A stretch of DNA of 42,215 nt from Candidatus Woesearchaeota archaeon (GCA_964424875.1 CAYRKK010000002.1:1-42215), one strand, 5' to 3'. Positions 10,808 through 35,923 are shown, counted from the stretch's first letter. The notes: generated by a model not told the origin, from the letters alone. Translations and numbers: made by a program.

Positions 10808-11681
10808 ATGGTACCTCTTAGCATTAATCTCTGCATTTTTTTCAGCAGTAGCTGCAATATTTGAAAAAAAAGTTTTATTTAAAGAAAAAGCATTAGGATT
10901 CTCAACCCTATTTGCACTTTTCAACTTAATCTTAGCAATACCCTTTTTCTTTTTTATTAATTTTACACTAGTCACTTCATCAGGCCTTTTTGTTTTAATG
11001 AGTAAATCTCTTTTTGAAGCAGGAGCATTTCTTTGTGTAATGCAGGGAATTAAAAATCTTGAGATTAGTGAAGCTCTTCCTTTATTAGTCCTTACACCAG
11101 GCTTAGTTGCATTAGGAGCATTTATTTTTTTAGCAGAAACCCTGACTTTTCTTCAAATCACAGGAATTTTTTTATTAATGATTGGAACTTATACTTTACA
11201 AATAAAAACTAAAGAAAAACAAAAATTACTCGACCCTATCAAAGCTTTTTTTAAAACAAAAGCATATTACTACATTATAGCTGCTTTAATTTTATTCACA
11301 ACAACCTCAATACTTGACAAAGCTATTTTAAAAAACTTCAAACTCCCTTTAAATGCTTTTATGGGTTTTCAGCATCTTTTCCTGGCAATTATTTTCATTA
11401 TCTTTATAATCTCAACAAAAAAAACCCATCAACTAAAATCTGCAATTAAATTTTCTTGGATATTAATTCTAACAATCTCAATCTTCACAATAGTTTACAG
11501 ATACACCCAGCTTTCAGCAGTAAAAATTGCACCTGTTGCATTAGTTCTTTCATTAAAAAGAATTTCAGTTTTCTTCGCAGTTTTAATAGGTGGAAAACTT
11601 TTCCAAGAACATAATTTACTAATCAGAACTTTAGCAACAGCAATTATGATTGCAGGTGCTGTGTTAGTTATTGTTTTTTAG
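10800..11681 (+). CDS. EamA/DMT-family transporter
   Basis: About 10 predicted TM helices in two similar halves and 293 aa, a size and pattern typical of EamA proteins. Confidence 0.7.
   Translation: MIEWYLLALISAFFSAVAAIFEKKVLFKEKALGFSTLFALFNLILAIPFFFFINFTLVTSSGLFVLMSKSLFEAGAFLCVMQGIKNLEISEALPLLVLTPGLVALGAFIFLAETLTFLQITGIFLLMIGTYTLQIKTKEKQKLLDPIKAFFKTKAYYYIIAALILFTTTSILDKAILKNFKLPLNAFMGFQHLFLAIIFIIFIISTKKTHQLKSAIKFSWILILTISIFTIVYRYTQLSAVKIAPVALVLSLKRISVFFAVLIGGKLFQEHNLLIRTLATAIMIAGAVLVIVF
11651..11681 (+). repeat. direct repeat DR-L (live 3' end of the EamA gene), partner of 12744..12774
   Basis: tgcaggtgctgtgttagttattgttttttag versus tgcaggagttgggttggttattgttttttaa, 26/31 by eye. Both end in a stop codon in the same frame (AGAVLVIVF* / AGVGLVIVF*). 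Confidence 0.7.
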
Positions 11682-11684
11682 GGT

Positions 11685-11723
11685 TGTAGACAAAATTATA
11701 GAAAGATTTAAATATGTAGACAA
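11685..11723 (+). promoter_or_regulatory. two direct copies of TGTAGACAA upstream of the Fic gene, flanking a TTTAAATA box
   Basis: TGTAGACAA at 11685..11693 and 11715..11723, with tttaaata at 11707..11714 between them. The ATG is at 11744. Confidence 0.6.
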
Positions 11724-11743
11724 CGATTATATTTATATAGAAA

Positions 11744-12682
11744 ATGTATATTGAAAAAAGAAAAGTAAAAGGCAAAATAAAGTTTTGGCTATCACACTCT
11801 TTTAGAGAAGGTGGAAGAATACATAAGATAAGAAAATTATTAGGTTTAGATTTATCTGAAGAAATTTTGAAAGAGAGGATAGAAAAAGCTAAGCAATTGA
11901 TTTTAGAAGAGATTAATAAATATAAAATAATCAAAGACCCTCTTCATGATAAGATTTCTAAAGAAGAATTGGATTTTATTAAAAAATTGCAAGCAGAGGC
12001 TAATTTAAAAATTATTCATTTATCTGAAACTGAATGGAAGAAATTTTCAGAAATCTTTAGTTATAACACAAATGCTATTGAGGGAAGTGATCTTACAATG
12101 AAAGAAACCAAGACTGTGATAGAAAAAGGTGCTTGGCCAATAGAGAAATCAAAAGAAGATATTGCTGAAGCTCTTGGAGTAAATGAGGCAATTAAATACA
12201 TAAGAAAAATTAAAGAACATATTTCTTTAGATTTAATTAAAGAAATTCATCATATTGTTTTTAAAAATTCTAAGAATTTTGCAGGAGGGTTTAGAAAATT
12301 AGGGCAGGAAGTAGTTGTTAGAACTGGTTCTGGAATTATAGTTCATGAGGGTGCACCTTCATCAAGAGTTATTACTTTACTCAATGAATTAATTAAGTGG
12401 TACAATAAACATAAAACAGAATATCCTGCTATTCTTTTAGCAGCAGTTGTTCACAACCAATTTGAAAATATACATCCTTTTGCTGATGGAAATGGAAGAG
12501 TAGGAAGAATTCTTTTAAATAATATTTTACTTAAAAAAGGATTACCTCCAGTAAATATTGATTTAAAAAATCAAAGAGAGTATTATGAAACCTTGCAAGT
12601 CTATGAAAAACAAAAGAATATAAGGCCAACAATAGAACTTATTTTAAAAGAATATAAAGATTTAAAAAAGATTATTAAGTAA
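11744..12682 (+). CDS. Fic-family protein (class II, with N-terminal inhibitory motif) and a basic N-terminal extension
   Basis: Canonical HPFADGNGRVGR Fic motif. The upstream TNAIEG fits the (S/T)xxxE(G/N) inhibitory helix motif. Confidence 0.9.
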   Translation: MYIEKRKVKGKIKFWLSHSFREGGRIHKIRKLLGLDLSEEILKERIEKAKQLILEEINKYKIIKDPLHDKISKEELDFIKKLQAEANLKIIHLSETEWKKFSEIFSYNTNAIEGSDLTMKETKTVIEKGAWPIEKSKEDIAEALGVNEAIKYIRKIKEHISLDLIKEIHHIVFKNSKNFAGGFRKLGQEVVVRTGSGIIVHEGAPSSRVITLLNELIKWYNKHKTEYPAILLAAVVHNQFENIHPFADGNGRVGRILLNNILLKKGLPPVNIDLKNQREYYETLQVYEKQKNIRPTIELILKEYKDLKKIIK

Positions 12683-12689
12683 TTCTAAT

Positions 12690-12728
12690 TGTAGACAATT
12701 TTGTAGACAAAAATATATTTGTAGACAA
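12690..12728 (+). promoter_or_regulatory. three direct copies of TGTAGACAA immediately downstream of the Fic stop
   Basis: TGTAGACAA at 12690..12698, 12702..12710 and 12720..12728, in the same orientation as the two upstream copies. Confidence 0.6.
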
Positions 12729-12743
12729 AAGATTATTACAATC

Positions 12744-12774
12744 TGCAGGAGTTGGGTTGGTTATTGTTTTTTAA
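12744..12774 (+). pseudogene. direct repeat DR-R: relic copy of the EamA C-terminal codons plus stop
   Basis: See DR-L. It has no upstream ORF continuity with a transporter gene, so it reads as a displaced gene end. Confidence 0.6.
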
Positions 12775-12894
12775 ATGTTTGTTGATACCTCTGCCGAGCA
12801 AGAAACCATTATGGCATAATCATGGGCTTTTTATTTGATTATTAATTTAAAGAATATTAACAAGTATTTATATTTTTAAATGAATAGTAAAATC

Positions 12895-13317
12895 CTATTC
12901 TGGGATATTTTTTAATGTTTCGGAATAAGATACCCATTGATCAAACAAACAGAATAGTCCAAGGGAATCAAAAGAACTATCCATATTTTTGGTTGTATAC
13001 TTCAATGGTTCTGTTTTAGATAAATCCAGGAGTTTTCCAGATTGTCCTTCTAATTCCAACCAGGTTCCTTTTGACCCATTAAGAGTTATTTGTCTTACAA
13101 AAGCAGTATTCTCATGAAACATGTATGGTGAATTGCCAGAATATCTGAAACGCTTAATAATACCTGCGCCCAGCTCGTTCATTCTACATTGCATTTCAGT
13201 GGTTAAAATTACTTCCAACATTTCTCCAGCAAACTGTCTGCTAAGAAGAATTTCAAAATCATGATGTGGTTGATAAAGATGTGTTGGCTGCCAAATAATA
13301 TTATCATTAGGGTACAT
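12895..13317 (-). CDS. orphan hypothetical protein (140 aa) with non-K/I/N-biased composition
   Basis: Clean ATG-to-stop ORF flanked by >200-nt non-coding regions. No motif recognised. Confidence 0.5.
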   Translation of the reverse strand: MYPNDNIIWQPTHLYQPHHDFEILLSRQFAGEMLEVILTTEMQCRMNELGAGIIKRFRYSGNSPYMFHENTAFVRQITLNGSKGTWLELEGQSGKLLDLSKTEPLKYTTKNMDSSFDSLGLFCLFDQWVSYSETLKNIPE

Positions 13318-13550
13318 AACTAAGTAGAAAAATAAGTATTTAATAATATATTTGTGTTGAGAGGATTTATTTTACTTAACAATATATTCTCCCTAAAAAA
13401 TGAACTAAACAGTGGGATGCCCCTACAGAGCAAGAATAATATTTGTCCACTTATTAGGGGAATAAAATTATGAAGAATATTGTCTTTATCTTCAATCATC
13501 TCTTTTATTTTTATAAACTCTCAAACACACTTAACTATAAAAAATCTTTC

Positions 13551-16500
13551 CTAAAAACTGATGTCTCTTGAATCAGAATTCCCAGCATCATCTCTAATAA
13601 TTAATTGATAATTTGTATACTTCTCTCTTAACTTAAATTTCTTTTCACATTTTCCATATCTTAATCTACTGCATAATCTCTTTTCTTTAGTTTTTCCACG
13701 ATAATCATAACTCAATACAACTTTATCAAAATTCATTTCAGTTATAGACATATCAAAATAAACATAATCATCATATCTTCCAGTTCCCATTTCCCAAAAA
13801 TCATCAGGATTATTTAATACTGGAGAAGTCATATCAACATCAACTTCTCTTTTTTTTGATTCATCTTTATTTCCTGCAATATCTTCTAATTCAAACCAAT
13901 ATTCTATTTTCTGATTATCAAAGTCAGTTAGATTAACCCAAACCTTACAAGAATGTTTACCTCTAATTTCACTACAATCCTTTTCAATATCCAATTCCTG
14001 AGTCCTTATACTATTACCATAATATAATGTTAGATTTTCAGGATTATCTTCTTTAAATTCAACATAAAAGTTTCCATCTGAAAATCCTCTTGTTGGACTT
14101 GTCTTAGAAATTCTAGGGTCTTTTGAGTCTACTAAAAACGAAACACTTTCTTCATCTATAGTAACATCTTCAACAATCGCTTTAAAAGTAAGTTTATAGG
14201 TTCCATCTGAAAAAGATACTTTCCGATTGTATTCATCACAATTTCTACATAATCTTTTTTCTCTTAATCTTCCTCTAGAATCAAAATAAGTATAAACTAT
14301 TTCATCTACTTCTTCTGTTGTTTCAAGATTTAGTAATATTCTTCTGTTATCAAAGAGGTCTAAGATTGGGGAATTAATGATTAAATTTGTTTGATTATTT
14401 TCCTGAGTTCCACAATTTAAAATTGCCCGATATTCATAAATAGTTTGATTTTGAGAACCTTGGCAAGAATTTGAATCATATTGTGTTAAAAATCTTGATT
14501 GATTCATTAGATTATTAGATAAACATGAAATATTTTGCCAGTCACTCCATGATGTGTTAATAAGATTTGGAATGCATAAGTTTAATACCATTATTGAAGT
14601 TTGCATTGTGGCTATATCAAAGTGAAGATTTTGGGAATCTGGAACATTTGGAATTATTACTCTATATTCTCCAATAGGCAAAGTATAATAAGAATCAAGT
14701 TGGTTTGAATTTTTATTAAAATGATAATAATTCTTTGAATGAGGGTTTCTATTAAGATTGTATATTGCTTGCGTTGAAATCTTTTGTATCTGTAAATCTA
14801 AATTAGAACTAGGATTCCAAATATTTCCATTGTCAACAACTTTAATCTGAACAGAGCCTTCTGAATATTTATTGAAAAAAGACTTACTATATCCAGTTTC
14901 AGGATTATAATAAGAATAAGAATTAGAAGCTAAAACACCATCTGATTTATCATTTAAGAAATCTAAAATGATTTGAGAGTATTCATCTAATCGGGATACC
15001 TCTGTAGCATGATTATACCCATTTATTATAGATAAAGGGATGTTTTGATTTAATAAGCTTGAGCTTGATATTGAAACTAAACAATCATATTCTTCAGAAT
15101 CTGATTCTTTATGCCCAAAATTATCTGTAAGAGAACATAATATAGCTCCCTTATCAAATTCTATTACATCACCCCAATTTAGTCTTTCACTGTTTCCAAT
15201 AATTACATAGTTTTTAGTAGGCAAATTTTTATCTCCTAAATCAAATATCAAATCACTACCTAATGCCATCTGTTTATAAATTGGAGAATTAGAAGCTCCA
15301 GAATATCCAATTCTCCAGTCTTCAAAATTAGAATAATCATCAAAAAATAATGAACCTATTCCAGAGATAATCCAATCCTCACTGATCCCATTAGAAGCCC
15401 CACTTCCATGACTAGGTGATGCTAATAAAATTAAATGATTTACATCATTTTTATAATTATAACTAGAAATATTTTGAACATAACTTCTTGAAACTAATCC
15501 CCCCATACTATGAGCAATAACGTCAAACTTTTGTGAACTTCCATAATAATGATTTTTTAAATAAAGAGTTGAGTCACCTAAAAGTGCCCCACTCATAGGT
15601 ATGTCGTCCTCTCCAGAATAATAAAATTCCCAAGCATCATATCCTTTATTTTGAAATTGTTCTTGAGTTTCTTCTTCATTCCAATATCCTGATTCACCAT
15701 GTTTTCCATGAATAAAGATTATTGGTTTTTGATTTCTAATAACTTTGGGAACATCTAAAAAAGAGATCATATAATCTGCATAGTTATTATTTATACTTTC
15801 AGCACTTTGAACTGAGAACTTTTGTTGTTGATCTTTAATAAATTGTATTTTAGTTTCAATTTTATAAAGATTTGATGAATTTATTTCTTTTAATGGTTCA
15901 TCATTATATCCTAAGTACATTACAGGATTATTAGATGCTTTTTCCTTTAATTCAAATTCAAGAGTATTATTATATTCATTAAGATTAACCTGAACAAGTT
16001 TTGAATTTAATTTAGAATCTTCCGTATCAATTAAAGTTTCATTATTTATTTTAAGAAGAAGATAATCTGATACATTAAATAATATTTTATAATCTCCAGA
16101 ATTTTCTACTTGAAGATAACCTTTCCAATTTAATGAGATCATTTCTTGACTAGGCTCACTACTTGATGCTGATAATGTTTTTGAGGAAGAGAGTATTGTA
16201 GTTGAATCAAGCTCAGGAAAATAATTTCTTTTCCATGCAGGCTTATCTTGATGTATTCTTACTATTTGGTTTACCCAGTCTTCTGCATTATTAAAATTAT
16301 TTTTATTTGAAAAGTGATTTGTCCATTTCCCTATAATTTCATTGTTATCTATTGCATAAATCGCATAAATTTGGTAATCTACAAACAATGTTGGATTATT
16401 CCACCAAGCAATATATCTTTCTGGATTAAATTTGAAGTTCCCATTAGAATCTGTATAAACATCAAAGTAGTCTACTATGTCATTTTCTACTAAATCCACA

Positions 16501-17885
16501 TCTTCAACATACACCCTTAATTTTAAATTGCTGTAAACATTTTCTGAGAATGTTTGTCCTTGTTGAGATACTTGATAGACTTTTCCCTTGACAGCAGGAT
16601 TACAATTTTTCTGAGGGTCATTCCAATTTTCATACTCATAACAGCACCCCTCATTTTCTGTATCAATTATAGGGGTATTTCCATCACAAACTAGATTTGA
16701 AGTACATTGAGAACTACTATCACAGTCCCAACCATTATATCCAAAGAGTGTGTCTAAATTATTTGATGTAGCTGACTTTGAATTGACTGTTGCTTTAAAA
16801 CAATATTCTAAATTTCCAATTAAATCGTCGCCATTAGCAACAACCCAATTAATTAATGCGAAATTATTATTTATTGTAGAATAGAATGAACCAATAGAAT
16901 TTCCACTACATATAGAAGTAACCATATCATCTTCTATAATATCAAATTTAACAGAATTACCGTTTGAGATATCTTGAGTCTGAATGTTTAATGAGACTGT
17001 GTCTCCAGTATTTGCCGAGGTCGGACTCCAATAGATAGATGTTATTGAAGGATTGGTTATTTTTTGACAGCTATTTGTTCCAGTATTCCATTTTTCACCA
17101 ACATTACAACATCCACATTCCAACCCCATTAAACAAATATACCCGTCATAATCAACACAGTCAAAATTAGATGAACATTCAGAATCGTAATCACAGTCAT
17201 ATTCTCCATAATTACACCCTCCTTTTCTTTGTCCCTTATAATTACAATAATCACTATGCCCATTATAAAGAGAAGATCCATCATAGCAATAACAATCTCC
17301 CCAACCTGTGCACGATGCCCAACCTAGATAACATGAATCTACTAAATTATAACATTCATCCTTATCGCAATTATTAGTCCATCCTACTCCACACAAACTA
17401 CATAAAGAACTAGAAGGAGCAAGTACACTAAAACTACTAAATTTTTTAGATAAAATTTTAACATTACTAAAATAAGTAGAAGAATAATAATCAAAAATAG
17501 GATTTTCTAATAGATTAACAGAATTACTCTCTATATGAATCAGGTAGTTATTATTAGTCCATTCTATAAAATCTTTAAACATTAAATAATTTTTATCTTC
17601 AAAAGAGTATATATGCTCTAAATCAATGGGATCTGTTGTTTTGTTTATACTAGCTTTAAGTGCCTCCTCATCACTAAATTCTATAATCCAAACAATTATT
17701 TCTCCTTCTTCTGAAGAATAATAGATCTTAGAATAATTTAAAACTCCCTCAAAAATTTCTGGGAAATCAGGATTATCAATTTGAATTACTTCATAAATAT
17801 CAATTTTACTAGTTTCACCATTGACACCCCCAACCATAAAAATCATTAAAAATATGTATGCCCCTAATACCAACAACTTTTTCAT
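13551..17885 (-). CDS. giant secreted/surface protein: signal peptide, Cys-rich module, PA14-like region, lipase-like alpha/beta-hydrolase domain, C-terminal Ig-like repeats
   Basis: N-terminal MKKLLVLGAYIFLMIFMVGGVNG. Dense Cys cluster at about aa 160-275. NWKGYLQVENSGDYKILFNVSDYLLLKINN is PA14-like. IFIHGKHG ... DVIAHSMGGLVSRSY is a GxSxG nucleophile elbow as in class 2 / PGAP1-like lipases (near nt 15490..15530). Repeated ...KEKRLC... modules at the C-terminus. Confidence 0.8.
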   Translation of the reverse strand: MKKLLVLGAYIFLMIFMVGGVNGETSKIDIYEVIQIDNPDFPEIFEGVLNYSKIYYSSEEGEIIVWIIEFSDEEALKASINKTTDPIDLEHIYSFEDKNYLMFKDFIEWTNNNYLIHIESNSVNLLENPIFDYYSSTYFSNVKILSKKFSSFSVLAPSSSLCSLCGVGWTNNCDKDECYNLVDSCYLGWASCTGWGDCYCYDGSSLYNGHSDYCNYKGQRKGGCNYGEYDCDYDSECSSNFDCVDYDGYICLMGLECGCCNVGEKWNTGTNSCQKITNPSITSIYWSPTSANTGDTVSLNIQTQDISNGNSVKFDIIEDDMVTSICSGNSIGSFYSTINNNFALINWVVANGDDLIGNLEYCFKATVNSKSATSNNLDTLFGYNGWDCDSSSQCTSNLVCDGNTPIIDTENEGCCYEYENWNDPQKNCNPAVKGKVYQVSQQGQTFSENVYSNLKLRVYVEDVDLVENDIVDYFDVYTDSNGNFKFNPERYIAWWNNPTLFVDYQIYAIYAIDNNEIIGKWTNHFSNKNNFNNAEDWVNQIVRIHQDKPAWKRNYFPELDSTTILSSSKTLSASSSEPSQEMISLNWKGYLQVENSGDYKILFNVSDYLLLKINNETLIDTEDSKLNSKLVQVNLNEYNNTLEFELKEKASNNPVMYLGYNDEPLKEINSSNLYKIETKIQFIKDQQQKFSVQSAESINNNYADYMISFLDVPKVIRNQKPIIFIHGKHGESGYWNEEETQEQFQNKGYDAWEFYYSGEDDIPMSGALLGDSTLYLKNHYYGSSQKFDVIAHSMGGLVSRSYVQNISSYNYKNDVNHLILLASPSHGSGASNGISEDWIISGIGSLFFDDYSNFEDWRIGYSGASNSPIYKQMALGSDLIFDLGDKNLPTKNYVIIGNSERLNWGDVIEFDKGAILCSLTDNFGHKESDSEEYDCLVSISSSSLLNQNIPLSIINGYNHATEVSRLDEYSQIILDFLNDKSDGVLASNSYSYYNPETGYSKSFFNKYSEGSVQIKVVDNGNIWNPSSNLDLQIQKISTQAIYNLNRNPHSKNYYHFNKNSNQLDSYYTLPIGEYRVIIPNVPDSQNLHFDIATMQTSIMVLNLCIPNLINTSWSDWQNISCLSNNLMNQSRFLTQYDSNSCQGSQNQTIYEYRAILNCGTQENNQTNLIINSPILDLFDNRRILLNLETTEEVDEIVYTYFDSRGRLREKRLCRNCDEYNRKVSFSDGTYKLTFKAIVEDVTIDEESVSFLVDSKDPRISKTSPTRGFSDGNFYVEFKEDNPENLTLYYGNSIRTQELDIEKDCSEIRGKHSCKVWVNLTDFDNQKIEYWFELEDIAGNKDESKKREVDVDMTSPVLNNPDDFWEMGTGRYDDYVYFDMSITEMNFDKVVLSYDYRGKTKEKRLCSRLRYGKCEKKFKLREKYTNYQLIIRDDAGNSDSRDISF

Positions 17886-18031
17886 ATAAATACCACAAAA
17901 TCAATATATATTAAACTATCGACAATAAAGTCATCAGCTAATCGTGGTAAAAAAGAATCAATCCTCAATAACCCTACCCAACTTTTCTTTATGTTCTTCA
18001 ATATCTTTCTTTGCATCTGCAAAGATTTCAT
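17882..18031 (-). CDS. possible 49-aa ORF translationally coupled (ATGA overlap) to the giant protein gene
   Basis: My own translation is MKSLQMQRKILKNIKKSWVGLLRIDSFLPRLADDFIVDSLIYIDFVVFI*. A GAGGT lies upstream. The stop overlaps the giant gene ATG. It is below the ORF-track length cutoff. Confidence 0.3.
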   Translation of the reverse strand: MKSLQMQRKILKNIKKSWVGLLRIDSFLPRLADDFIVDSLIYIDFVVFI

Positions 18032-18052
18032 CTTGTTCTTCCCTACCTCTTT

Positions 18053-18139
18053 TTATAATATTTCTCTCCCAACAACCTCAACACTTCTCTTCTTTTTATC
18101 AAACCAAACTCGCCCACCAAACTTCAACTCCTTTGCTTC
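18053..18139 (-). pseudogene. relic duplicate of the C-terminal ~28 codons of the HydA-like gene, lying just downstream of MFS copy 1
   Basis: Reads EAKELKFGGRVWFDKKKRSVEVVGREIL* with no start codon. Nucleotide blocks 18068..18092 and 18117..18130 match 19372..19396 (24/25) and 19400..19413 (14/14). Confidence 0.7.
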
Positions 18140-18149: not shown

Positions 18150-19331
18150 TTATTGTTTTTTAGCCCTCAAAAACAAAAACAAAACAGGAATAATCAACAT
18201 AACCAAGGCACCAATTCTAAATCCAATATTAATATTATAAATATCTGATGAAAATCCAACTAAAGGAACAAAAATAGCAACCCCTAAACCTCTCATCAGA
18301 TTATAACCAGAAATAACAGTAGCACGAGTACTTGAATCTGTTTCTAAATGTAACAAATGTTCTGTTGCAGGTCTTCCAATTCCATAAAAAAATTGTTTAA
18401 TTAATAAAAAAATAATTGCTATTAAAGGAAAAACAAATGTTGCAAATAAATAAAACAAACTATAACCAAACCCTCCCATTATAATTGTTTTTTTATCTCC
18501 TAATTTTTCAGAAACTTCATGAGAAAAATAATGTCCTAAAGAAGATACTGCAAAACTTATTGCAAATATATAACCAAAATAAATTATTGGAATTTCATAA
18601 AACTGAAAAAATATTGGTTTTAAATAATGTAAAGAATCTCCTATTCCAATTAAAATAAGAGCACTGAACAAGATTATTAAAACCTGAGAATTTTTAATAA
18701 TAACTCCTAAAGATTTAAACATATGTTTAAAAACATTTTTATGAGTTTCTTTTTCATATTTTGGTTCTACTAACTGAAATGAAAGAAAAGTTGCAATAGA
18801 CATTGGAATAAGACTCATAATAACAGGTAATGATAAAGAAATAGATGCTAAATACCCTCCAACAACAGCACCAATACTAGCACCAATTGGCCATAATGCA
18901 TATTTAGTTCCAATAATTTTTTTAAAATATTTTTCCTTGCCTTCTTGCTTTAATGTATCATAAATTAAAGCACTATCTGCCCCACTAAACATACTTCTAC
19001 CAAATGCATTAATAATAGCATATAAAACAAACATTATCATTATATTCCCAATAGCTAAAAAAACAAAACTTAAAAGAATCACAAATCCAGAAATAATTAT
19101 TGATTTTTTTCTTCCAAGCAAATCAGCAATAGCACCAGTTGGATATTCAAATAAAACAATAGCAATAGATTCAATAGAAATTATTAATGCCACATTTGTC
19201 AGTGTAAATAAACTCTCCTCAATATATAAAGCAAAAATAGGCAGGAAAAATAACATACCTCCAAAAATAGACATAATATAAAAATAAAAAATATTCTTAG
19301 ATTTAATTCCATAAGTATTAAAGAGTTTCAT
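18150..19331 (-). CDS. MFS transporter, copy 1
   Basis: About 12 TM helices and a GAIADLLGRKKS loop motif. Start moved to MKLFNTYG (ATG at 19331), 1 nt after the upstream gene stop. Paralog of 25300..26487. Confidence 0.85.
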   Translation of the reverse strand: MKLFNTYGIKSKNIFYFYIMSIFGGMLFFLPIFALYIEESLFTLTNVALIISIESIAIVLFEYPTGAIADLLGRKKSIIISGFVILLSFVFLAIGNIMIMFVLYAIINAFGRSMFSGADSALIYDTLKQEGKEKYFKKIIGTKYALWPIGASIGAVVGGYLASISLSLPVIMSLIPMSIATFLSFQLVEPKYEKETHKNVFKHMFKSLGVIIKNSQVLIILFSALILIGIGDSLHYLKPIFFQFYEIPIIYFGYIFAISFAVSSLGHYFSHEVSEKLGDKKTIIMGGFGYSLFYLFATFVFPLIAIIFLLIKQFFYGIGRPATEHLLHLETDSSTRATVISGYNLMRGLGVAIFVPLVGFSSDIYNINIGFRIGALVMLIIPVLFLFLRAKKQ

Positions 19332-19332
19332 T

Positions 19333-20229
19333 TTAAACTCTTCCAATCTCTTTATTTTTTTTCTCACAACTCCCAACAATCTCAACACTTCTCTTCCCCC
19401 CAAACTTCAACTCTCCTGCTTTTTCAATTAAACCTTTCCTCTCCTCAGGAATATCTTCATCTTTTGATTTTTCTAAATAATCTAAAACTTTTTTCTTTTT
19501 AACAGATATGGGAATTTTAGAAGTATGAGGTCCTCCAATACAACCTCCAACACAAAACAAAACATCTAAAAATTTTATTTTAGGGTTTGGATTATCTAGA
19601 AACTTCATAATTTTTTTTATCCCATCAATAATCAAAACCTCTTCTTTTTTTATAACACCTTTTAAATGCGCTGTTTTTGCCAAACCCCCTGACAAAGGAA
19701 ATATTTTAGTATAATCATTATAAAACTTATTAAATAAAACATCTCCCTTTATTTTCTTAATTTTCTTTTTCTTAAAAATTTCTCTCAACTGCTCATAATC
19801 AATAACATAATCAATATATTCAGAATTTTCAGATTCAATTTTTTTAAAATCACAAGGAGAAATAAAAACAGTTTTATGTTGAGGATATTGCTTTTTAGAA
19901 ATCTTAGCAGTTGCAATCATTGGACTATCAACTTTAATTAAATTCTTTTTATACTGAGGATATTTATTGCAAATTGTTTCAACAATTCCAGGACAAGGCG
20001 ATGCAATCACCAACTCCTTTGAATTCTTCAATTTCTTATGATAATCCCTGTTAATCATCTTAGCACCAAAAGTTAATTCAATAGCTTTATCAAATCCCAA
20101 TGCCCGAAGTCTAAATATTATTGACGGATACTCAAACTCAGCAACAAAACTCGGAGCAACAAGAGCAATCATTTTAACACCCTGTTCTAATTCAGAAACG
20201 ATTTTATTAATGTTGTTTTTTTCAAACAT
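19333..20229 (-). CDS. short [FeFe]-hydrogenase H-domain-like protein (Fe_hyd_lg_C-like) without N-terminal ferredoxin domains
   Basis: ASPCPGIV aligns to L1 TSCCPGW, ISPCDFKKIE to L2 MPCxxKxxE, and VLFCVGGCIGGP to L3 MxCxxGCxxGG. Confidence 0.65.
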   Translation of the reverse strand: MFEKNNINKIVSELEQGVKMIALVAPSFVAEFEYPSIIFRLRALGFDKAIELTFGAKMINRDYHKKLKNSKELVIASPCPGIVETICNKYPQYKKNLIKVDSPMIATAKISKKQYPQHKTVFISPCDFKKIESENSEYIDYVIDYEQLREIFKKKKIKKIKGDVLFNKFYNDYTKIFPLSGGLAKTAHLKGVIKKEEVLIIDGIKKIMKFLDNPNPKIKFLDVLFCVGGCIGGPHTSKIPISVKKKKVLDYLEKSKDEDIPEERKGLIEKAGELKFGGKRSVEIVGSCEKKNKEIGRV

Positions 20230-25299: not shown

Positions 25300-26487
25300 T
25301 TAAATGTTTTGTTTTTTAGATTTTAAAAACAAAAACAAAACAGGAATAATCAACATAATCAAAGCACCAATTCTAAATCCAATATTGATATTATAAATAT
25401 CTGATGAAAATCCAATTAAAGGAACAAAAATAGCAACCCCTAAACCCCTCATTAAATTATAACCAGAAATAACAGTAGCACGAGTACTTGAATCTGTTTC
25501 TAAATGCAATAAATGCTCTGTTGCAGGCCTTCCAATTCCATAAAAAAATTGTTTAATTAATAAAAGAATAATTGCAATTAAAGGAAAAACAAATGTTGCA
25601 AATAAATAAAACAGACTATAACCAAACCCTCCCATTATAATTGTTTTTTTATCTCCTAATTTTTCAGAAACTTCATGAGAAAAATAATGTCCTAAAGAAG
25701 ATACTGCAAAACTTATTGCAAATATATAACCAAAATAAATTATTGGAATTTCATAAAACTGAAAAAATATTGGTTTTAAATAATGTAAAGAATCTCCTAT
25801 TCCAATTAAAATAAGAGCACTGAACAAGATTATTAAAACCTGAGAATTTTTAATAATAACTCCTAAAGATTTAAACATATGTTTAAAAACATTTTTATGA
25901 GTTTCTTTTTCATATTTTGGTTCTACTAACTGAAATGAAAGAAAAGTTGCAATAGACATTGGAATAAGACTCATAATAACAGGTAATGATAAAGAAATAG
26001 ATGCTAAATACCCTCCAACAACAGCACCAATACTAGCACCAATTGGCCATAATGCATATTTAGTTCCAATAATTTTTTTAAAATATTTTTCCTTGCCTTC
26101 TTGCTTTAATGTATCATAAATTAAAGCACTATCTGCCCCACTAAACATACTTCTACCAAATGCATTAATAATAGCATATAAAACAAACATTATCATTATA
26201 TTCCCAATAGCTAAAAAAACAAAACTTAAAAGAATCACAAATCCAGAAATAATTATTGATTTTTTTCTTCCAAGCAAATCAGCAATAGCACCAGTTGGAT
26301 ATTCAAATAAAACAATAGCAATAGATTCAATAGAAATTATTAATGCCACATTTGTCAGTGTAAATAAACTCTCCTCAATATATAAAGCAAAAATAGGCAG
26401 GAAAAATAACATACCTCCAAAAATAGACATAATATAAAAATAAAAAATATTCTTAGATTTAATTCCATAAGTATTAAAGAGTTTCAT
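25300..26487 (-). CDS. MFS transporter, copy 2
   Basis: Protein identical to copy 1 over about the first 311 aa and divergent only at the C-terminus. Confidence 0.85.
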   Translation of the reverse strand: MKLFNTYGIKSKNIFYFYIMSIFGGMLFFLPIFALYIEESLFTLTNVALIISIESIAIVLFEYPTGAIADLLGRKKSIIISGFVILLSFVFLAIGNIMIMFVLYAIINAFGRSMFSGADSALIYDTLKQEGKEKYFKKIIGTKYALWPIGASIGAVVGGYLASISLSLPVIMSLIPMSIATFLSFQLVEPKYEKETHKNVFKHMFKSLGVIIKNSQVLIILFSALILIGIGDSLHYLKPIFFQFYEIPIIYFGYIFAISFAVSSLGHYFSHEVSEKLGDKKTIIMGGFGYSLFYLFATFVFPLIAIILLLIKQFFYGIGRPATEHLLHLETDSSTRATVISGYNLMRGLGVAIFVPLIGFSSDIYNINIGFRIGALIMLIIPVLFLFLKSKKQNI

Positions 26488-29167: not shown

Positions 29168-30376
29168 TTATTTCTCATGAAAACTTGCTAGCCCTTCAAA
29201 TCCTACACCAAACTCACCCCACATATGACTATGAGCATGAAAAGAAACTGCACGAATCTCCAATTGATGCCTTATACCTTTATCAAGTAAATCACCTTCA
29301 TCTACTTCTCTTAAAATTCCATCAATACTAAATCGTTTATTAAAATATCTTTCACCACGAAAAGATGCTGTTCTAAAGACACCTTGACTATCCATACATG
29401 GAAGAATTCCTTCAGGAATACTATCTAACTCAGCTAAAGGTCTTGGTAATCCTTCCTCTGAATTAAACAACATGTCATGATATACCCAAACATCTGCACC
29501 AGAATCCTCACCAACTAACTTATCATCTAAAAATTGAAAATGATTTCCTAACCTAACAGGATTAGATGCTTCTGATAAATGTCTAGAACCTAACCAATTA
29601 CAACCATTTCCTAAATAATTTGCAACAGCTATAATTTCATTATGAATAGTAATTCTCTTAAATCTTTTATATTCCTCCATAGACCCTAAATCGTTAAATC
29701 TACTTAAATCAAAAAAAGCTTCTGCTTGTTCTATAGTTAAATCAGAATTTTTTCCATGTGGTTTTATTTCATTTCTCACCCATCTTATAGGGTCACTACC
29801 ATCTGGTTTTAGTCCTACTCTATGCCGATAACCATTAGGATTATGTATAAGTTGGAATGGAAGTTTTGCTTCACAGCAAGGCATATCACAAATATCTCTT
29901 ATTGTTTCTCCAGGAACCATATCTGAAATGTCTACTACGCGAATTTCTGCTCTTTTTAAGCATGGACTCTCTGAACCTAACCTCCTAGTTTCTTCTACAA
30001 CATAAGGACAGCTAGGGTCTCCATGATATGGACCTGCATACTGAGTACCTAATAAAATTGCCTGTCCACCATTAAGAACTGGCAATTCAACACCTTCAGG
30101 CAAGGCAGGAGATTCATAACCATCACAAACCCTTTTGGGTGCAATATTCCAACTACTAGACATAGTGCTAAATCCACCCATATATTCTCCAAGCTTTACT
30201 CTTCTAAATCTCTGTGGATGTTCACAATAAGCAGTTTCATCAAACTTCAACCCTCCTACCTGATGCATACAAGAACCACAATTAACATAATTCTGAGCTC
30301 CATTTCTTGGATTATGTTCTCTTGACTTTCTAAATCTGAATTCTCTATTAAAATCTTCTTTTTTTAACTTTGACAT
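29168..30376 (-). CDS. orphan cysteine-rich hypothetical protein (402 aa), co-directional with and upstream of acs
   Basis: Long clean ORF with CGSC, CEH, CPY, CDMPCCE and other Cys/His clusters. Composition and local GC look higher than the surroundings. No family recognised. Confidence 0.6.
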   Translation of the reverse strand: MSKLKKEDFNREFRFRKSREHNPRNGAQNYVNCGSCMHQVGGLKFDETAYCEHPQRFRRVKLGEYMGGFSTMSSSWNIAPKRVCDGYESPALPEGVELPVLNGGQAILLGTQYAGPYHGDPSCPYVVEETRRLGSESPCLKRAEIRVVDISDMVPGETIRDICDMPCCEAKLPFQLIHNPNGYRHRVGLKPDGSDPIRWVRNEIKPHGKNSDLTIEQAEAFFDLSRFNDLGSMEEYKRFKRITIHNEIIAVANYLGNGCNWLGSRHLSEASNPVRLGNHFQFLDDKLVGEDSGADVWVYHDMLFNSEEGLPRPLAELDSIPEGILPCMDSQGVFRTASFRGERYFNKRFSIDGILREVDEGDLLDKGIRHQLEIRAVSFHAHSHMWGEFGVGFEGLASFHEK

Positions 30377-30677: not shown

Positions 30678-30680
30678 AAG

Positions 30681-30688: not shown

Positions 30689-30709
30689 GCCATAAATTAT
30701 TGTTTTTAT

Positions 30710-31975: not shown

Positions 31976-32000
31976 AGGGCCTCTTTGCCCTAATCCTTTT
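31976..32000 (+). terminator. hairpin plus T-run downstream of the ATPase gene
   Basis: agggc-ctctttg-ccct is followed by aatcctttttt. It is preceded by a GC-rich stem ttcaag ... cttgaa (31934..31970). Confidence 0.35.
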
Positions 32001-32001
32001 T

Positions 32002-32600: not shown

Positions 32601-33184
32601 TACCTTTTATCTTTAATTCCCTTTTCCCACAACATTCTTGTATACCCAACATTTGTCACATCTTTAAAATCAATTTCTAATTCTTTTAAAATATCATAAA
32701 CCATTTTAACAGCTTTTTTCATCTCTCTTTTTTCAGCAATATATTCAATCTCCATAAAATAACCCAAATGCCTGACTTTATTTATTTCAATATTGACTTT
32801 TTTGTTCGCCCGATAAGTATAAGACTCAGAAATCTTAAACTTCTTTAACCATTGTTTAAAACCCAAATCAAACATCAAAGCCAAAAACTTATCAGGAGAT
32901 TTTGTTTCAAATTCATATTCCTCCTTAATAACAATCTCTTTTGTCCAATACTTTCTCAACCAGTGTTTAAAATTAATAACATAACTCTCTCCATTATCCC
33001 TAATTCTAAAAGCTTTTTTAGGATATCTTCTAACAGCCCCAGTTCTCTTTAATGGAATAGCAAAATAATCATCAGACTTACTTTTCTTTTTACTAAACTT
33101 AGCAATTTTTAAAATTCTTTTCCTAAGTCCAGCAACCTCTTTAGGTTTTAACTTAACTTTAGTCTCAACCTCTAATTGCACCAT
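32588..33184 (-). CDS. CYTH-domain protein (CyaB-like class IV adenylyl cyclase / triphosphate tunnel metalloenzyme)
   Basis: N-terminal LEVETKVKL is the ExExK motif. Also FRIRDNG and LGYFMEIEY blocks. Confidence 0.75.
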   Translation of the reverse strand: MVQLEVETKVKLKPKEVAGLRKRILKIAKFSKKKSKSDDYFAIPLKRTGAVRRYPKKAFRIRDNGESYVINFKHWLRKYWTKEIVIKEEYEFETKSPDKFLALMFDLGFKQWLKKFKISESYTYRANKKVNIEINKVRHLGYFMEIEYIAEKREMKKAVKMVYDILKELEIDFKDVTNVGYTRMLWEKGIKDKRYWLD

Positions 33185-33279
33185 TTTAACCTCTTTAATT
33201 TCTTTAACCTCTTTTATATCTCATTTAGTAAATCCATATATTTAAACATTACTAAAAATTAGATTTTGTATAGCCTACA

Positions 33280-33458
33280 GACATATCAGGCTGTCCTGTA
33301 ATTAAATAAAAAAAAGACCACATCTCCACCCTGAGATCTTATCAAACATTAATGGATTAGTATTAATGAGAAAAAATATATGGCTGAATGGTTTATCCTG
33401 AACCATACAACCAATCATTTACAACAATTTTTAAATATACTCATTTTTAGATTTATTA
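33280..33458 (-). repeat. intergenic repeat family B, copy B2 (inverted relative to B1; far end degenerate)
   Basis: gacatatcaggctgtcctgtaattaaataaaaaaaagacc ... is the reverse complement of the right part of B1. Similarity fades near the pduL ATG. Confidence 0.7.
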
Positions 33459-33460
33459 TA

Positions 33461-34042
33461 ATGATAGACTTTAAAAAAATAAAAGTAGAAATTTCAAATA
33501 GACATATTCATTTAAAACCTAAACATGTTGACACTTTATTTGGAGAAGGTTATGAATTAAAAGTCCATAAAGAATTATCTCAACCAGGACAATTCTCAAG
33601 TTTTGAAAAAGTAACTTTAGTAAATGGATTAAAAAAAATTAACAATGTAAGAATTTTAGGCCCACCACGTAATGAAACTCAAATTGAGATATCAAGAACA
33701 GATTCATTTTTTTTAAAACTTAATCCTCCAGTTAGATTATCCGGAGATTTAGAAGAATCCCCAGGAATTATTATCCTTGGTCCAAAAGGCAAAATTGAAA
33801 TAAATAAAGGAGTAATAATAGCCCATAGGCATTTGCATCTTTCTCATGAAGAAGCAGAAAAACTAAAAATCATGCATGGACAAATAATTAAAATTAAAGT
33901 TCCAGGAATTAAAGAAACTATTTTCAACAATGTTATTGCAAGAGTTCAACCTAAATATAGATTAGCATTTCATATAGACCGTGACGAAGGAAATGCCTGT
34001 TTTTTAGAACCAGGAACTTTTGCAGAATTAATTATGGAATGA
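33461..34042 (+). CDS. pduL: PduL-type phosphate acyltransferase (phosphotransacetylase/propanoyltransferase)
   Basis: ISNRHIHL, SQPGQF, VRILGP, TQIEISRTD, PVRLSGD, AHRHLHL and HIDRDEGNA blocks. Start moved to the internal ATG at 33461 because the upstream 27 codons lie inside repeat B2. Confidence 0.9.
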   Translation: MIDFKKIKVEISNRHIHLKPKHVDTLFGEGYELKVHKELSQPGQFSSFEKVTLVNGLKKINNVRILGPPRNETQIEISRTDSFFLKLNPPVRLSGDLEESPGIIILGPKGKIEINKGVIIAHRHLHLSHEEAEKLKIMHGQIIKIKVPGIKETIFNNVIARVQPKYRLAFHIDRDEGNACFLEPGTFAELIME

Positions 34043-34082
34043 GACAAAATAAATTATTTTAAAAAAATACACAGCCAGCAGG

Positions 34083-34191
34083 TCCTAAAAAATCAAAGAT
34101 TTTTTGGAACCATCAAAAATGATAAACATTTTTGTGGCCACAAAAACCATAAAAGTTTTTGATGGCTTCAACTTCAAATAGAAAGTTGAAG
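34083..34191. terminator. cluster of four AT-rich hairpins in the convergent intergenic region
   Basis: Hairpins lie at 34083..34108, 34110..34165 (two adjacent hairpins that can also refold as one nested structure around the palindrome tttttgtggccacaaaaa) and 34166..34191 (cttcaactt/aagttgaag). Confidence 0.4.
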
Positions 34192-34253
34192 TAATCAAAC
34201 CCACTAACTCCAAAAGTCAAATTAACAGACAGCGTTTCACAAGGGAAGTATCT

Positions 34254-34577
34254 TCAGATAACAACACTTTCTACTATTTCACAAGGGGTTTCTTTTGTAA
34301 AAGTAAAATTAGCATTTCTAAATTGTTTTTCAACTAAATTAAACATAGACTTCACCTCATTAGACATATTTTTTTCTAACAAATTCTTATTACTATTTTC
34401 TCTTAGTTTAAGATATTCAGCAGCACTTGATCTAGAGATAAATATAATATTTTTAAAATCAATAGTGATTTCATCATCTTTTAAATTATTTATCTTTTCA
34501 TTAAAAAAAGAAGCAATGCTATTTCTAGTTAAGATATTTTCTCCAAATTCTTTATTTAATAATATTTTTTTTATCAT
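34254..34577 (-). CDS. STAS-like DUF4325 protein
   Basis: EITIDFKNIIFISRSSAAEYL fits the DUF4325 pattern (.lDF.gv..is.sF.dE). It starts 2 nt after the stop of the GHKL ATPase gene. Confidence 0.6.
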   Translation of the reverse strand: MIKKILLNKEFGENILTRNSIASFFNEKINNLKDDEITIDFKNIIFISRSSAAEYLKLRENSNKNLLEKNMSNEVKSMFNLVEKQFRNANFTFTKETPCEIVESVVI

Positions 34578-34578
34578 T

Positions 34579-35208
34579 CTATTCTAAATAAGGATAGATA
34601 TTTAAATCTTTTTCAGGGGTTTTTAATTTTAGATATATCATTGTCCCATCTAATTTTCCTTTTTTAAAGTCAATAATATCAATTGAGGAATTTGATATTA
34701 TTAACATCCCTTCCCTTGAAATTATTTTTATTTCCCCTCTTAATGCTTTAACAATCGCTCTAGTAGTTCTAAGTCCAAAACCCCTTGAAATATCCTCCTG
34801 CTTAGTGGTCTTTCCTTCTAATGCCATCTTTATTGCATCACTATCTTTTGAATAATTAATATTATTTTTTTCAAAAACAACTGGAATACTTAATCCATCA
34901 TCAAATACTCCTATTTCTAAACATTTTTCTTTTGCATCATATCTAACAAATAAAAAAGCCTCTGCATAATTAGAGTGCTGTTCAATATTATCAGTTAATT
35001 CACTTAAAATATATGGAATACTACTTTCAAATGTTTTCGGAATCTTAGTCTTAATATCAATTAATAATCTATTAATCTCTTCATCCATTTTTTTACTTCT
35101 ATCTATATGAATTTTTAATGGATAAGGGAAACCCATTTTTTTAATATGTTTTTGAATTGATTCATCTAAATCATTTATTTTTCCAAAAAAATTTTCATTA
35201 ATTGCCAT
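34579..35208 (-). CDS. GHKL-superfamily ATPase, SpoIIAB/RsbW-like (anti-sigma-type kinase fold)
   Basis: N box ELTDNIEQHS, G1 box DDGLSIP and G2 box RGFGLRT. Confidence 0.7.
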   Translation of the reverse strand: MAINENFFGKINDLDESIQKHIKKMGFPYPLKIHIDRSKKMDEEINRLLIDIKTKIPKTFESSIPYILSELTDNIEQHSNYAEAFLFVRYDAKEKCLEIGVFDDGLSIPVVFEKNNINYSKDSDAIKMALEGKTTKQEDISRGFGLRTTRAIVKALRGEIKIISREGMLIISNSSIDIIDFKKGKLDGTMIYLKLKTPEKDLNIYPYLE

Positions 35209-35242
35209 TTTAATACCTTAAAATTTATTTATTTAAATTTTA

Positions 35243-35323
35243 CGCCAACACCCGGAATCGAACCGGGGCACCCCGAAGGGTCCGGCTTAGCAAGCCGGTG
35301 CAATACCATTATGCGATGTTGGC
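35243..35323 (-). tRNA. tRNA-Ser (anticodon GCU)
   Basis: The reverse complement folds as a cloverleaf. Acceptor stem is GCCAACA/TGTTGGC. The anticodon stem CCGGC/GCCGG has loop TTGCTAA. There is a long variable arm ACCC-TTCG-GGGT and a T arm CCCGG-TTCGATT-CCGGG. No CCA is encoded. Confidence 0.9.
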
Positions 35324-35346
35324 ATGAATATGAGTGACTTTTTGGT

Positions 35347-35355
35347 AATTTAAAG
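35347..35355 (-). promoter_or_regulatory. candidate TATA box of tRNA-Ser
   Basis: Minus-strand ctttaaatt is centred about 28 nt upstream of tRNA position 1. Confidence 0.4.
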
Positions 35356-35356
35356 C

Positions 35357-35743
35357 TTATTGTTTAACATCTTCACAATAACTTATTTCTATCTTGCAGA
35401 TGTTTGCTGGACTAATAATTTCAATATAATGATACTTATAATTATTGCCTGTTTCTGTTGCAATAAAACTATCAATTTTGCAGTTATGCTTTCTAGCATA
35501 TTTTTTTAGATTTTCTATAGAACTAGCATCAATCTCAAAAGTCATATTTTGGGTGATTTCTTGATCTTTGCCTTTAATTAAGTTTACTTTAAAATCTGTA
35601 TTTGGAATAAAAAAAGTTATCCATCCTGGATGATTATATTCCCCTTTATCTTCATTAAAGAATTGTCCAAGAAACTCTCCAACTTCTTCAATATATTCAT
35701 GGCAAACAAGATATGAACCATATATTACATTTTTTCTTTCCAT
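35357..35743 (-). CDS. hypothetical protein (128 aa)
   Basis: Clean ORF lying between the tRNA and the duplicated tRNA 5' fragment. No confident motif. I could not verify a possible VOC/glyoxalase-like fold. Confidence 0.5.
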   Translation of the reverse strand: MERKNVIYGSYLVCHEYIEEVGEFLGQFFNEDKGEYNHPGWITFFIPNTDFKVNLIKGKDQEITQNMTFEIDASSIENLKKYARKHNCKIDSFIATETGNNYKYHYIEIISPANICKIEISYCEDVKQ

Positions 35744-35782
35744 TTTCTTAATTTTCCACCTTGTACCTCACTTTCATAACCC

Positions 35783-35857
35783 ATCTTAACAACCCCCAAA
35801 AGCAATTTCTTATTCTATACATTTACTAAAATTGCTTTTGCTCGGCAATACCCTTAT
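35783..35857 (+). repeat. intergenic repeat family C, copy C1 (~75 nt, contains a 12-bp inverted repeat)
   Basis: cttaacaacccccaaaagcaatttcttatt ... ttactaaaattgcttttgctcggcaataccctta. The arms caaaagcaattt (35797..35808) and aaattgcttttg (35829..35840) are perfect complements. Confidence 0.75.
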
Positions 35858-35883
35858 CTTCAAATTCTTTAAATTTGAATGAG

Positions 35884-35908
35884 ACAGAAAATCAAAAAGA
35901 TTTTCTGT
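35884..35908 (-). terminator. perfect 10-bp hairpin downstream of NYN gene 1, abutting the tRNA fragment
   Basis: acagaaaatc-aaaaa-gattttctgt. Confidence 0.45.
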
Positions 35909-35923
35909 ATGCGATGTTGGCAT
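35908..35923 (-). repeat. 16-nt duplicate of the tRNA-Ser 5' end (tRNA nt 1-14 plus 2 upstream nt)
   Basis: tatgcgatgttggcat occurs at 35310..35325 and again at 35908..35923, in the same orientation. Confidence 0.8.

Follow-up and report, generated by a model that had tools for sequence, protein, structure and literature searches.

Single-gene insertions bordered by duplicated gene ends in a 42-kb region of a Pacearchaeota-like archaeon

Background

How can single genes be added to a small archaeal chromosome such that the end of the neighbouring gene is present twice, once on each side of the newcomer, with no recombinase in view? We address this question for a stretch of 42,215 nucleotides (nt) from a Candidatus Woesearchaeota archaeon (GCA_964424875.1, CAYRKK010000002.1:1-42215), referred to below as the window, that is, the whole stretch at its full length. 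Three loci are concerned: the EamA transporter gene followed by a Fic module, a gene resembling the large subunit of Fe-only hydrogenase ('HydA-like') with a first copy of an MFS transporter gene (MFS1) at its end, and tRNA-Ser with an open reading frame (ORF) of 128 amino acids (aa) in front of it. An initial annotation of the sequence had described each of them as a complete target end, an insert and a degenerate second copy of that end. All three are present at the places given there and prove to be insertions relative to related genomes. We cautiously read them as scars of additive insertions in which the inserts bore their own copy of the target terminus.

The host is a tiny-genome DPANN archaeon of Pacearchaeota-like type: the closest homologues of its EamA protein carry Pacearchaeota, Woesearchaeota or Nanoarchaeota annotation, and the promoters in the window are archaeal, with TTTAAA boxes ~27-33 nt 5' of the starts.

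Results

All 88 gene termini of the window were scanned for a nearby direct copy, using a first-order Markov null model and Bonferroni correction. Duplications were found for the 3' end of the HydA-like gene (adjusted p=8e-5), the 3' end of EamA (adjusted p=2e-4) and the 5' end of tRNA-Ser (adjusted p=2.5e-3); scored against controls, these gene-end duplications thus exceed the shuffled and Markov nulls after correction for all 88 ends. Each of the three sits exactly on a gene terminus, and in every repeat pair the core is perfect or nearly so and the similarity weakens outside it. The repeats differ in length: the 16 nt (tRNA-Ser) and ~31 nt (EamA) agree with the initial annotation, whereas the HydA-like copy, put there at 60-90 nt, extends over ~110-130 nt and contains a 21-24-nt indel. 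Between the repeats lies the cargo with almost no other DNA, the inserts measuring 0.6-1.3 kb and holding one gene each. A possible fourth case is borderline: the 3' end of a tRNA-deacylase gene is repeated around a DUF362 gene (score 18.5, adjusted p=0.04; Table 1), at whose position a related contig, L003, carries a different ORF of 115 aa.

With a GC (guanine plus cytosine) content of 28% the window yields many low-complexity matches, and many short-read assemblies break at the two MFS copies. Nevertheless, chance similarity and assembly artefact are effectively refuted as explanations. The former is rejected by empirical, shuffled and Markov nulls alike (adjusted p from 8e-5 to 2.5e-3 for the three loci), the latter by independent assemblies from other samples (L001, L040 and L063), in which all three arrangements recur; clean empty sites in relatives speak against both.

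These empty sites were found for all three insertions. L003, a JGI contig of 106 kb, is collinear with the window and more compact (EamA 91% identical, DNA 84-93% identical). It carries EamA, Fic and the EamA relic, and therefore the Fic insertion predates the split between the two lineages. Its HydA-like gene abuts the EamA relic, both MFS1 and a 5.3-kb block (12777-18060) being absent, and its NYN gene stands directly before tRNA-Ser, followed by CYTH; L003 consequently provides the empty sites for MFS1 and the 128-aa insert. Those for Fic are provided by L008, where EamA and the HydA-like gene converge at a distance of 15 nt without Fic or MFS, and by L005, which lacks Fic and has rubrerythrin, desulfoferrodoxin and response regulator genes between EamA and the HydA-like gene (the EamA orthologues of L003, L005 and L008 are 81-91% identical). 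The MFS1 and 128-aa ORF insertions postdate the window/L003 split, and since the Fic insertion and its relic are common to window and L003, the Fic event is the older one. The three events are independent, differ in age and do not need one shared enzyme. Because L005, L032 and L033 bear different cargo between EamA and the HydA-like gene, this junction is an insertion hotspot across the clade.

Table 1. Positions of the three insertions, their targets and relics, and of other segments considered (positions count from the first letter of the window)
Feature	Position	Strand	Remarks
Possible fourth case: DUF362/4Fe-4S gene between 28-31-nt copies of the tRNA-deacylase 3' end	9679-10801; copies 9679-9709 / 10774-10801	+	adjusted p=0.04
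EamA/DMT transporter gene, target of insertion 1	10800-11681	+	Pfam EamA; last 30 nt (11651-11680) are the real repeat copy
Portable Fic module	11684-12728	+	two TGTAGACAA around TATA box, 11684-11723; Fic ORF 11744-12682; three TGTAGACAA, 12689-12728
Relic of EamA 3' end with stop codon, T-run at end	12744-12774	+	26/30 identity; L003 equivalent at 11946-11975
Relic of HydA-like tail (ELKFGGRVWFDKKKRSVEVVGREIL, stop) and spacer	18152->18021	-	runs into the start of a 49-aa ORF (o49), ATG 18031
MFS transporter copy 1 (MFS1), cargo of insertion 2	18150-19331	-	absent from L003, present in strain L040
Fe-only-hydrogenase-large-subunit-like (HydA-like) gene, target of insertion 2	20229->19333	-	Pfam Fe_hyd_lg_C
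MFS copy 2 (MFS2), paralogue and possible source of MFS1	25300-26487	-	homology limited to ORF
Complete tRNA-Ser(GCU), target of insertion 3	35323->35243	-	ARAGORN and Rfam
Promoter supplied by insert, TATA CTTTAAATT	~35324-35360	-	sequence
128-aa ORF, cargo of insertion 3	35743->35357	-	no family match
Non-coding left part of insert 3	35792-35907	-	repeat C1 35792-35856; two perfect hairpins 35860-35907; fold z-score -3.3
Relic of tRNA-Ser 5' end	35908-35956	-	14 nt of tRNA and 2 nt upstream identical; original TATA box overlaps NYN stop codon
NYN-domain gene, 5' of tRNA locus	35948-36490	-	only 34% identical to NYN gene in same L003 position
Window-specific insertions vs L003/L031	20231-22299; 24730-27052; 29033-31996; 32328-32586; 33188-35241		

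At the first locus the EamA end (TGCAGGTGCTGTGTTAGTTATTGTTTTTTA) recurs at 12744-12773, with a core that measures 14 nt here and 23 nt in L003; the relic remains in frame (AGVGLVIVF vs AGAVLVIVF, each followed by a stop codon). Between both copies lies a FICD/SoFic-like ORF, contained in a module of ~1.05 kb that is bounded by clusters of TGTAGACAA (5 occurrences in the window vs 0.31 expected). Relatives of Fic were collected from 15 JGI loci (34-83% identity), none of which (0/15) places Fic next to EamA. Among the closer relatives the DNA homology starts with the first TGTAGACAA and ends with the last one, and these limits mark Fic as a discrete, portable module, for which at least 8 unrelated contexts are known. 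In several of them a tRNA is the neighbour, namely tRNA-Arg in L010 and tRNA-Glu for L013; the module of L014 is situated ~0.9 kb past a block anchored in tRNA-Asp. In L015 it is flanked by a 43-nt direct repeat (35/43) that seems, by eye, to extend to ~150 nt. Neither a short target-site duplication nor a common target motif was found around the Fic modules.

The upstream pair of TGTAGACAA brackets the Fic TATA box, and in one Fic subfamily (L013-L017 and L019) the motif is replaced by TGTAGTCAC. Because of this bracketing and of the co-variation with the subfamily, the arrays look like operators of the module, whereas a role as att sites is unlikely. Transport of the module by viruses was considered as well: the motif doublet matches 18 IMG/VR contigs, none of which encodes Fic or resembles the window, and virus-borne Fic modules were rejected. 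The viral doublet contigs are unrelated in sequence to the Fic module; in L045, L050, L053, L056, L058 and L061 (all from IMG/VR) the doublet TTGTAGACAA-N4-GTAGACAA is accompanied by a third GTAGACAA exactly 680 nt off, a spacing that points to a conserved phage gene with this 9-mer on both sides. A separate observation concerns the fate of the EamA relic in L003 (11937-12010), where the HydA-like ORF continues through the relic on the opposite strand and gains a C-terminal extension (...KADLKNNNHHSSCNM, stop); the relic has therefore been recruited as coding sequence.

At the second locus the real HydA-like tail and spacer (19430->19320) and the relic (18152->18021) align as gapped copies with a core that is 26/27 identical (19370-19396 / 18066-18092) and a score of 39.5, compared to 15.6±2.7 for shuffles. 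MFS1 starts at ATG 19331 and not at an upstream TTG, which places it 1 nt past the HydA-like stop codon (19335-19333). The homology of the HydA-like gene to L003 ends at 19393. As the tail of the relic (...GGRVWF...) keeps the ...GGxxW(W/F)... segment seen in L003 (GGKGWW) and L005 (GGKVWF), whereas the functional tail differs, the comparison supports the displaced copy as the ancestral end. In L005 (12380-12460) the HydA-like tail GVGFGGKVWFG with its stop codon is followed at once by a tail-like GIGFGGWW and stop, at z≈2 only; this may be a terminus duplication without cargo, or low complexity rich in G and W.

MFS1 and MFS2 lie on the same strand, 7.16 kb apart, and show 100% identity across the first ~870 nt, counted from the ATG, and ~95% across the last 300 nt to the stop codon. 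Their homology runs from AAAATGA to the stop codon and the flanks are dissimilar. In strain L040, which is 99.2% identical, the MFS1 orthologue equals MFS2 of the window at 14/14 sites where MFS1 of the window differs, because of which gene conversion between the two copies is held to be ongoing; an 11-site patch at 18537-18567 was found only in L040. Gene conversion alone can explain why the MFS identity is limited to the ORF.

On the minus strand the third locus reads: NYN, the old TATA box, 14 nt of the tRNA-Ser 5' end, two hairpins, a repeat (C1), the 128-aa ORF, a second TATA box and the full tRNA-Ser. The 14-mer of the relic, GCCAACATCGCATA (35921->35908), has 2 occurrences in the window vs 0.05 expected. 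The repeat is 16/16 identical at the tRNA start, and the 23 nt from TATA box to tRNA match at only 12/23; from this contrast it follows that tRNA-Ser owes its functional promoter to the insert, and that this promoter is no local duplicate that decayed. Five homologues of the 128-aa ORF are available, and those with readable context occur in unrelated places inside tight operons, one as a pseudogene, with DNA similarity confined to the ORF. None of the five (0/5) represents a donor with the ORF next to tRNA-Ser, and extra tRNA-Ser fragments marking tandem integrations were not found. On the contig of one homologue (L024) an 18-nt tRNA-Leu 3' end with CCA is repeated ~160 nt downstream of the gene (3334-3351 vs 3512-3596).

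Recombinases were sought by comparing the window ORFs to Pfam (E<=1), PHROGs, NCBIfam and PADLOC, plus a search of PDB sequences; the relatives were examined as flanks of up to 20 kb. No window ORF matches an integrase or transposase in the four profile collections, in line with the initial annotation, which had noted none in the inserts; orphan ORFs remain. The sequence searches detected no tyrosine or serine recombinase inside or near the inserts and no Cas1 or transposase in the window, and the idea of a recombinase hidden among the unannotated ORFs was dropped after these sequence searches. A cognate autonomous element, or an integrase with the same att, was seen neither in the window nor in the relatives' flanks. 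The three inserts do not have a boundary motif or cassette site in common, and inspection of the insert-end sequences, for which no dedicated search was made, gave no terminal inverted repeats.

How common such junctions are was assessed with an empirical null. Relative to L003 the window has 8 specific segments, and above-null junction repeats occur only in those holding MFS1 and the 128-aa ORF; none (0/4) of the L003-specific segments has them. The idea that insertions here generally have junction repeats is consequently rejected, most inserts in the region and at the hotspot being without them. Outside the region, the block in L014 (111-3118) shows this topology independently, again with no integrase match. 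Over 2.9 kb it holds MNT-HEPN, WYL and pRiA4_ORF3-like genes between tRNA-Asp and a perfect 43-nt copy of the 3' half of this tRNA. The repeat spans the anticodon loop to the 3' end, which is the classical att layout, and 0/5 ORFs scanned (>=119 aa) match an integrase. A PLD gene and the Fic module stand directly after the block.

The wider region keeps a metabolic backbone of CYTH, acetyl-CoA synthetase (ACS), POR, a thiamine pyrophosphate (TPP)-binding subunit and the HydA-like gene, the latter converging on EamA, with accessory genes scattered through it. Many of these match defence-associated families (SoFic/PDC-S04, PDC-S01 (AAA_14-DUF4143), HEC-09 NYN and DrmC-like PLD) and MNT-HEPN pairs are also present (Pfam), so that the region looks like a defence/accessory hot region of a DPANN genome. 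Compared to L003 and L031, a window-specific insertion is observed at almost every junction of the backbone (Table 1); the cargo comprises a nucleotidyltransferase gene, a short Fic with MFS2, a PDC-S01-type ATPase with an orphan 402-aa protein, and a HATPase_c protein with PTAC. The orphan ORF (29168-30376, minus strand), which adjoins the ATPase, is rich in G, R, P and C, atypical for an AT-rich genome, and has zero matches in Pfam, PHROGs, NCBIfam, PADLOC and PDB sequences. Furthermore, two copies of a ~120-nt segment, inverted relative to each other, are separated by 29 kb (4305-4435 and 33280-33397; 89% identical, 35 nt perfect). Both copies are found at edges of window-specific segments, and one of them overlaps the PTAC promoter and first codons.

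Two repeat families had been connected to the insertions in the initial annotation. Family A has a unit of ~190 nt that folds as a long imperfect hairpin and is present in three copies (4431-4625, 5749-5945 and 40948-41145; ~81% identical), two of which flank a KaiC-like gene. Family C consists of three copies of ~65-80 nt (35792-35856, 36698-36741 and 40608-40686) with an internal hairpin AAAAGCAATTT/AAATTGCTTTT; it shows no consistent relation to genes, and only one of the three inserts holds a copy. Apart from ~20-nt matches in three viral contigs, which look like chance, C turned up solely in contigs from the population of the window itself (L063 and L064). Neither family matches Rfam. The suggested connection does not stand: neither family is linked to insertion junctions, and a ~70%-identical copy of A is kept in the distant relative L041 (1021-1172). 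Both families were rejected as cassette boundaries and as known RNAs; A is perhaps a structured non-coding RNA or element that has not yet been described.

Discussion

With somewhat less than even confidence, we interpret the three loci as scars of additive insertions with an att-like or Campbell topology, in which inserts bore their own copy of the target terminus and strand exchange was performed in trans or by the host. Incoming DNA that carries a copy of the target end, as the initial annotation had envisaged, fits all three loci. That the incoming DNA would have had its own target end follows from the contrast between core and flanks, from the ancestral-type tail of the HydA-like relic and from the tRNA promoter that is not a local duplicate. 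On this interpretation a circular or otherwise anchor-carrying intermediate would bring a short target terminus, namely the EamA 3' end, the HydA-like 3' end with spacer, or the tRNA-Ser promoter with the first 14 nt. Recombination would then take place inside the identical or near-identical core of 14-27 nt, by which the target gene would be rebuilt from its chromosomal body and the end supplied by the insert, and the original end would come to lie beyond the cargo and decay there. Because the inserts hold one gene and no recombinase, strand exchange would occur in trans, either by an integrase encoded elsewhere, as with cis-mobilisable and decayed tRNA-island elements, or by host homologous recombination on short homology (14-30 nt).

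The model predicts concrete junctions. Circles would show attP-type junctions such as ...CACTCATATTCATGCCAACATCGCATACAGAAAATCTTTTTG and TGTAGACAAAAGATTATTACAATCTGCAGG...GTTATTGTTTTTTAGGGTTGTAGACAA, and empty attB-type junctions would read ...ATTATGATTGCAGG[core]GTTATTGTTTTTTAAATGTTTGTTGATACC (EamA end plus relic flank), HydA tail plus ATGAAATCTTTGCAGATGC, and ...TATATTTTTATGCCAACATCGCATAATGGTATTGCACC.

A number of results weigh against this interpretation. Junction repeats are seen in only 3 (perhaps 4) of the ~12 lineage-specific indels between window and L003; six other window-specific inserts are without them, ordinary intergenic spacers having been replaced, and the cargo of L005, L032 and L033 at the EamA/HydA hotspot is not accompanied by EamA or HydA relics. 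Similarly, most Fic modules elsewhere are without a flanking target duplication. Three targets with three repeat lengths would require several integrases or a non-specific mechanism. Integrases that target tRNA genes normally duplicate the 3' part of the tRNA and not the 5' part. The left junction of MFS1, with its microhomology of 11/12 nt and a near-identical paralogue 7 kb off, fits replication or illegitimate recombination better than a pre-formed att site. Finally, a circular form was not found, the predicted attP junctions being absent from IMG/VR, and no presence/absence polymorphism was found among the strain-level contigs (L001, L040 and L063-L067), all of which are in the occupied state.

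Several of these results might be explained by homology-facilitated illegitimate recombination with linear DNA of diverged relatives, in which a conserved gene or tRNA anchors the exchange, the other end joins illegitimately some tens of nt upstream and the recipient terminus is left as the relic, so that neither a dedicated recombinase nor a circle is needed. We consider this possible, though not probable. It would account for the lack of a recombinase in view, for the varying repeat lengths and for the functional ends, which differ from the relics in the way alleles of a diverged donor would, including the non-homologous functional tRNA promoter. Short-tract homologous recombination is evidently active as well (the MFS1/MFS2 mosaic differs between window and L040), and neighbouring insertions mostly without repeats are to be expected if the illegitimate joint lies in a spacer. 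However, donors with the cargo beside the same gene are required, predicted adjacencies being 128-aa ORF plus GCTTTAAATTACCAAAAAGTCACTCATATTCAT plus tRNA-Ser, and HydA tail ...KRSVEIVGSCEKKNKEIGRV (stop) plus MFS; none was found for the 128-aa ORF with tRNA-Ser, and EamA was found as a neighbour of Fic in the window/L003 lineage only. As for the illegitimate joints, clear microhomology is confined to the left junction of MFS1 (11/12 nt), with nothing convincing elsewhere, and the tRNA repeat of L014, perfect over 43 nt, gives the impression of site specificity.

For MFS1 in particular it can be argued that a nascent strand at the HydA-o49 junction jumped to MFS2 at ATGAAA(C)TCTTT, copied the ORF and returned ~130 nt upstream, leaving an MFS copy in a tandem duplication of the junction. 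Since the repeat runs into this motif, which o49 downstream and MFS have in common, and a paralogue is available on the same strand 7.16 kb off, such a microhomology-mediated duplicative insertion is a serious alternative at locus 2. The repeat covers the HydA tail, the spacer and the first 11-12 nt common to o49 and MFS, MFS1 has inherited the translation-start region of o49, and the limits of the MFS1-MFS2 homology (AAAATGA to stop codon) agree with template switching. Yet for the loci as a whole template switching is unlikely: neither Fic nor the 128-aa ORF has a source copy in the window, the tRNA promoter copy did not arise by local duplication, the right junction of MFS1 is without clear microhomology, and later gene conversion can also produce identity that is limited to the ORF. 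Even less credible is a history of full-size proviruses or islands, whose integrases once lay between the same att repeats and were whittled away by deletion. Partial tRNAs and degenerate remnants are typical of tRNA-anchored islands (10.1101/2020.12.28.424599), and the region is rich in defence-type cargo. But at all three loci nearly every nucleotide of the repeat interval is taken up by one intact gene, without remains of pseudogenes, and it is improbable that decay stopped at exactly one intact gene three times independently. Moreover, the searches detected no recombinase in the window, and the insertions of MFS1 and of the 128-aa ORF took place after the window and L003 had diverged.

Returning to additive insertion by DNA with its own target end, the loci can be compared to systems already described. 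Integron cassettes, including those of archaeal integrons, are tightly trimmed single-ORF units that are added one at a time. The inserts are likewise trimmed to a single ORF, but they are without a shared attC-like element, an attI/IntI platform or an array, there is no IntI match, and integron cassettes are not known to duplicate the end of a target gene. In contrast to transposons, insertion sequences, miniature inverted-repeat elements and casposons, no target-site duplication of fixed length is seen (16, ~31 and ~110-130 nt), and the Fic module has direct motif arrays at its bounds with no short duplication in other contexts. Homology-facilitated illegitimate recombination has reportedly been described in naturally transformable bacteria by de Vries and Wackernagel (2002) and by Prudhomme et al. 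(2002). A one-sided anchor in a conserved gene, addition of foreign DNA without a dedicated recombinase and the microhomology joint at MFS1 are points of agreement; on the other hand the process was described experimentally in bacteria and usually deletes recipient DNA, and to our knowledge neither a retained duplicated terminus nor its occurrence in DPANN archaea has been documented.

Elements integrated by an integrase agree with the present loci in the target-end direct repeats and the empty sites, and differ in having an internal recombinase gene. Cis-mobilisable elements (CIMEs) are non-autonomous, flanked by att sites and mobilised by an integrase in trans. They come closer: att-like direct repeats surround cargo without recombination genes at the three loci, as well as in the L014 block, although neither a matching autonomous element nor an integrase using their att was seen. 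The tycheposons of Prochlorococcus are tRNA-anchored islands that arise through tyrosine-recombinase elements; partial tRNAs stand on both sides of an element, one of host origin and the other brought by the element itself, and degenerate remnants build up (10.1101/2020.12.28.424599). Common features are cargo between a full target and a partial copy, defence or accessory functions, a streamlined genome, empty sites in relatives and partial copies that mark older integrations. Unlike tycheposons, the inserts here are 0.6-1.3 kb with one gene and have no integrase in or near them, the tRNA copy is a 5' end with promoter instead of a ~40-nt 3' segment, and two of three targets are 3' ends of protein genes. 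The footprints thus match att-flanked remnants of tRNA-anchored islands, from which they differ in size, in targets, in the 5' tRNA duplication and in the lack of an identified recombinase.

A single uncharacterised cassette-shuffling system of this lineage, as proposed in the initial annotation, is not supported: the events are heterogeneous in repeat length and have no boundary motif in common, they make up a minority of the insertions in the region, and repeats A and C are unconnected to them.

Conclusions

In comparison to a ~90%-identical relative, a region of 42 kb has received an insertion at almost every backbone junction, and much of the added material is of defence type, despite the tiny genomes and few recognised mobile elements of DPANN archaea. 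Three of these additions regenerate their target gene without a recombinase, which gives concrete junction sequences for studying gene entry. It might be speculated, although we hold this to be doubtful, that Pacearchaeota-like DPANN archaea hold a population of minimal integrative cassettes without recombinase, among them the Fic module with its TGTAGACAA bounds, the unit of the 128-aa ORF and the MNT-HEPN/WYL block at tRNA-Asp in L014; each would bear an evolved copy of a gene or tRNA end of the host that regenerates its target, would be moved by an undescribed recombination activity of the host or in trans, and the cassettes would form a main entry route for defence and accessory genes. If the three loci are ordinary att-type scars, the hotspots catalogued here and the portable Fic module are still of use. 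Should the process be independent of recombinases and widespread, models of gene flux in streamlined archaea would change.

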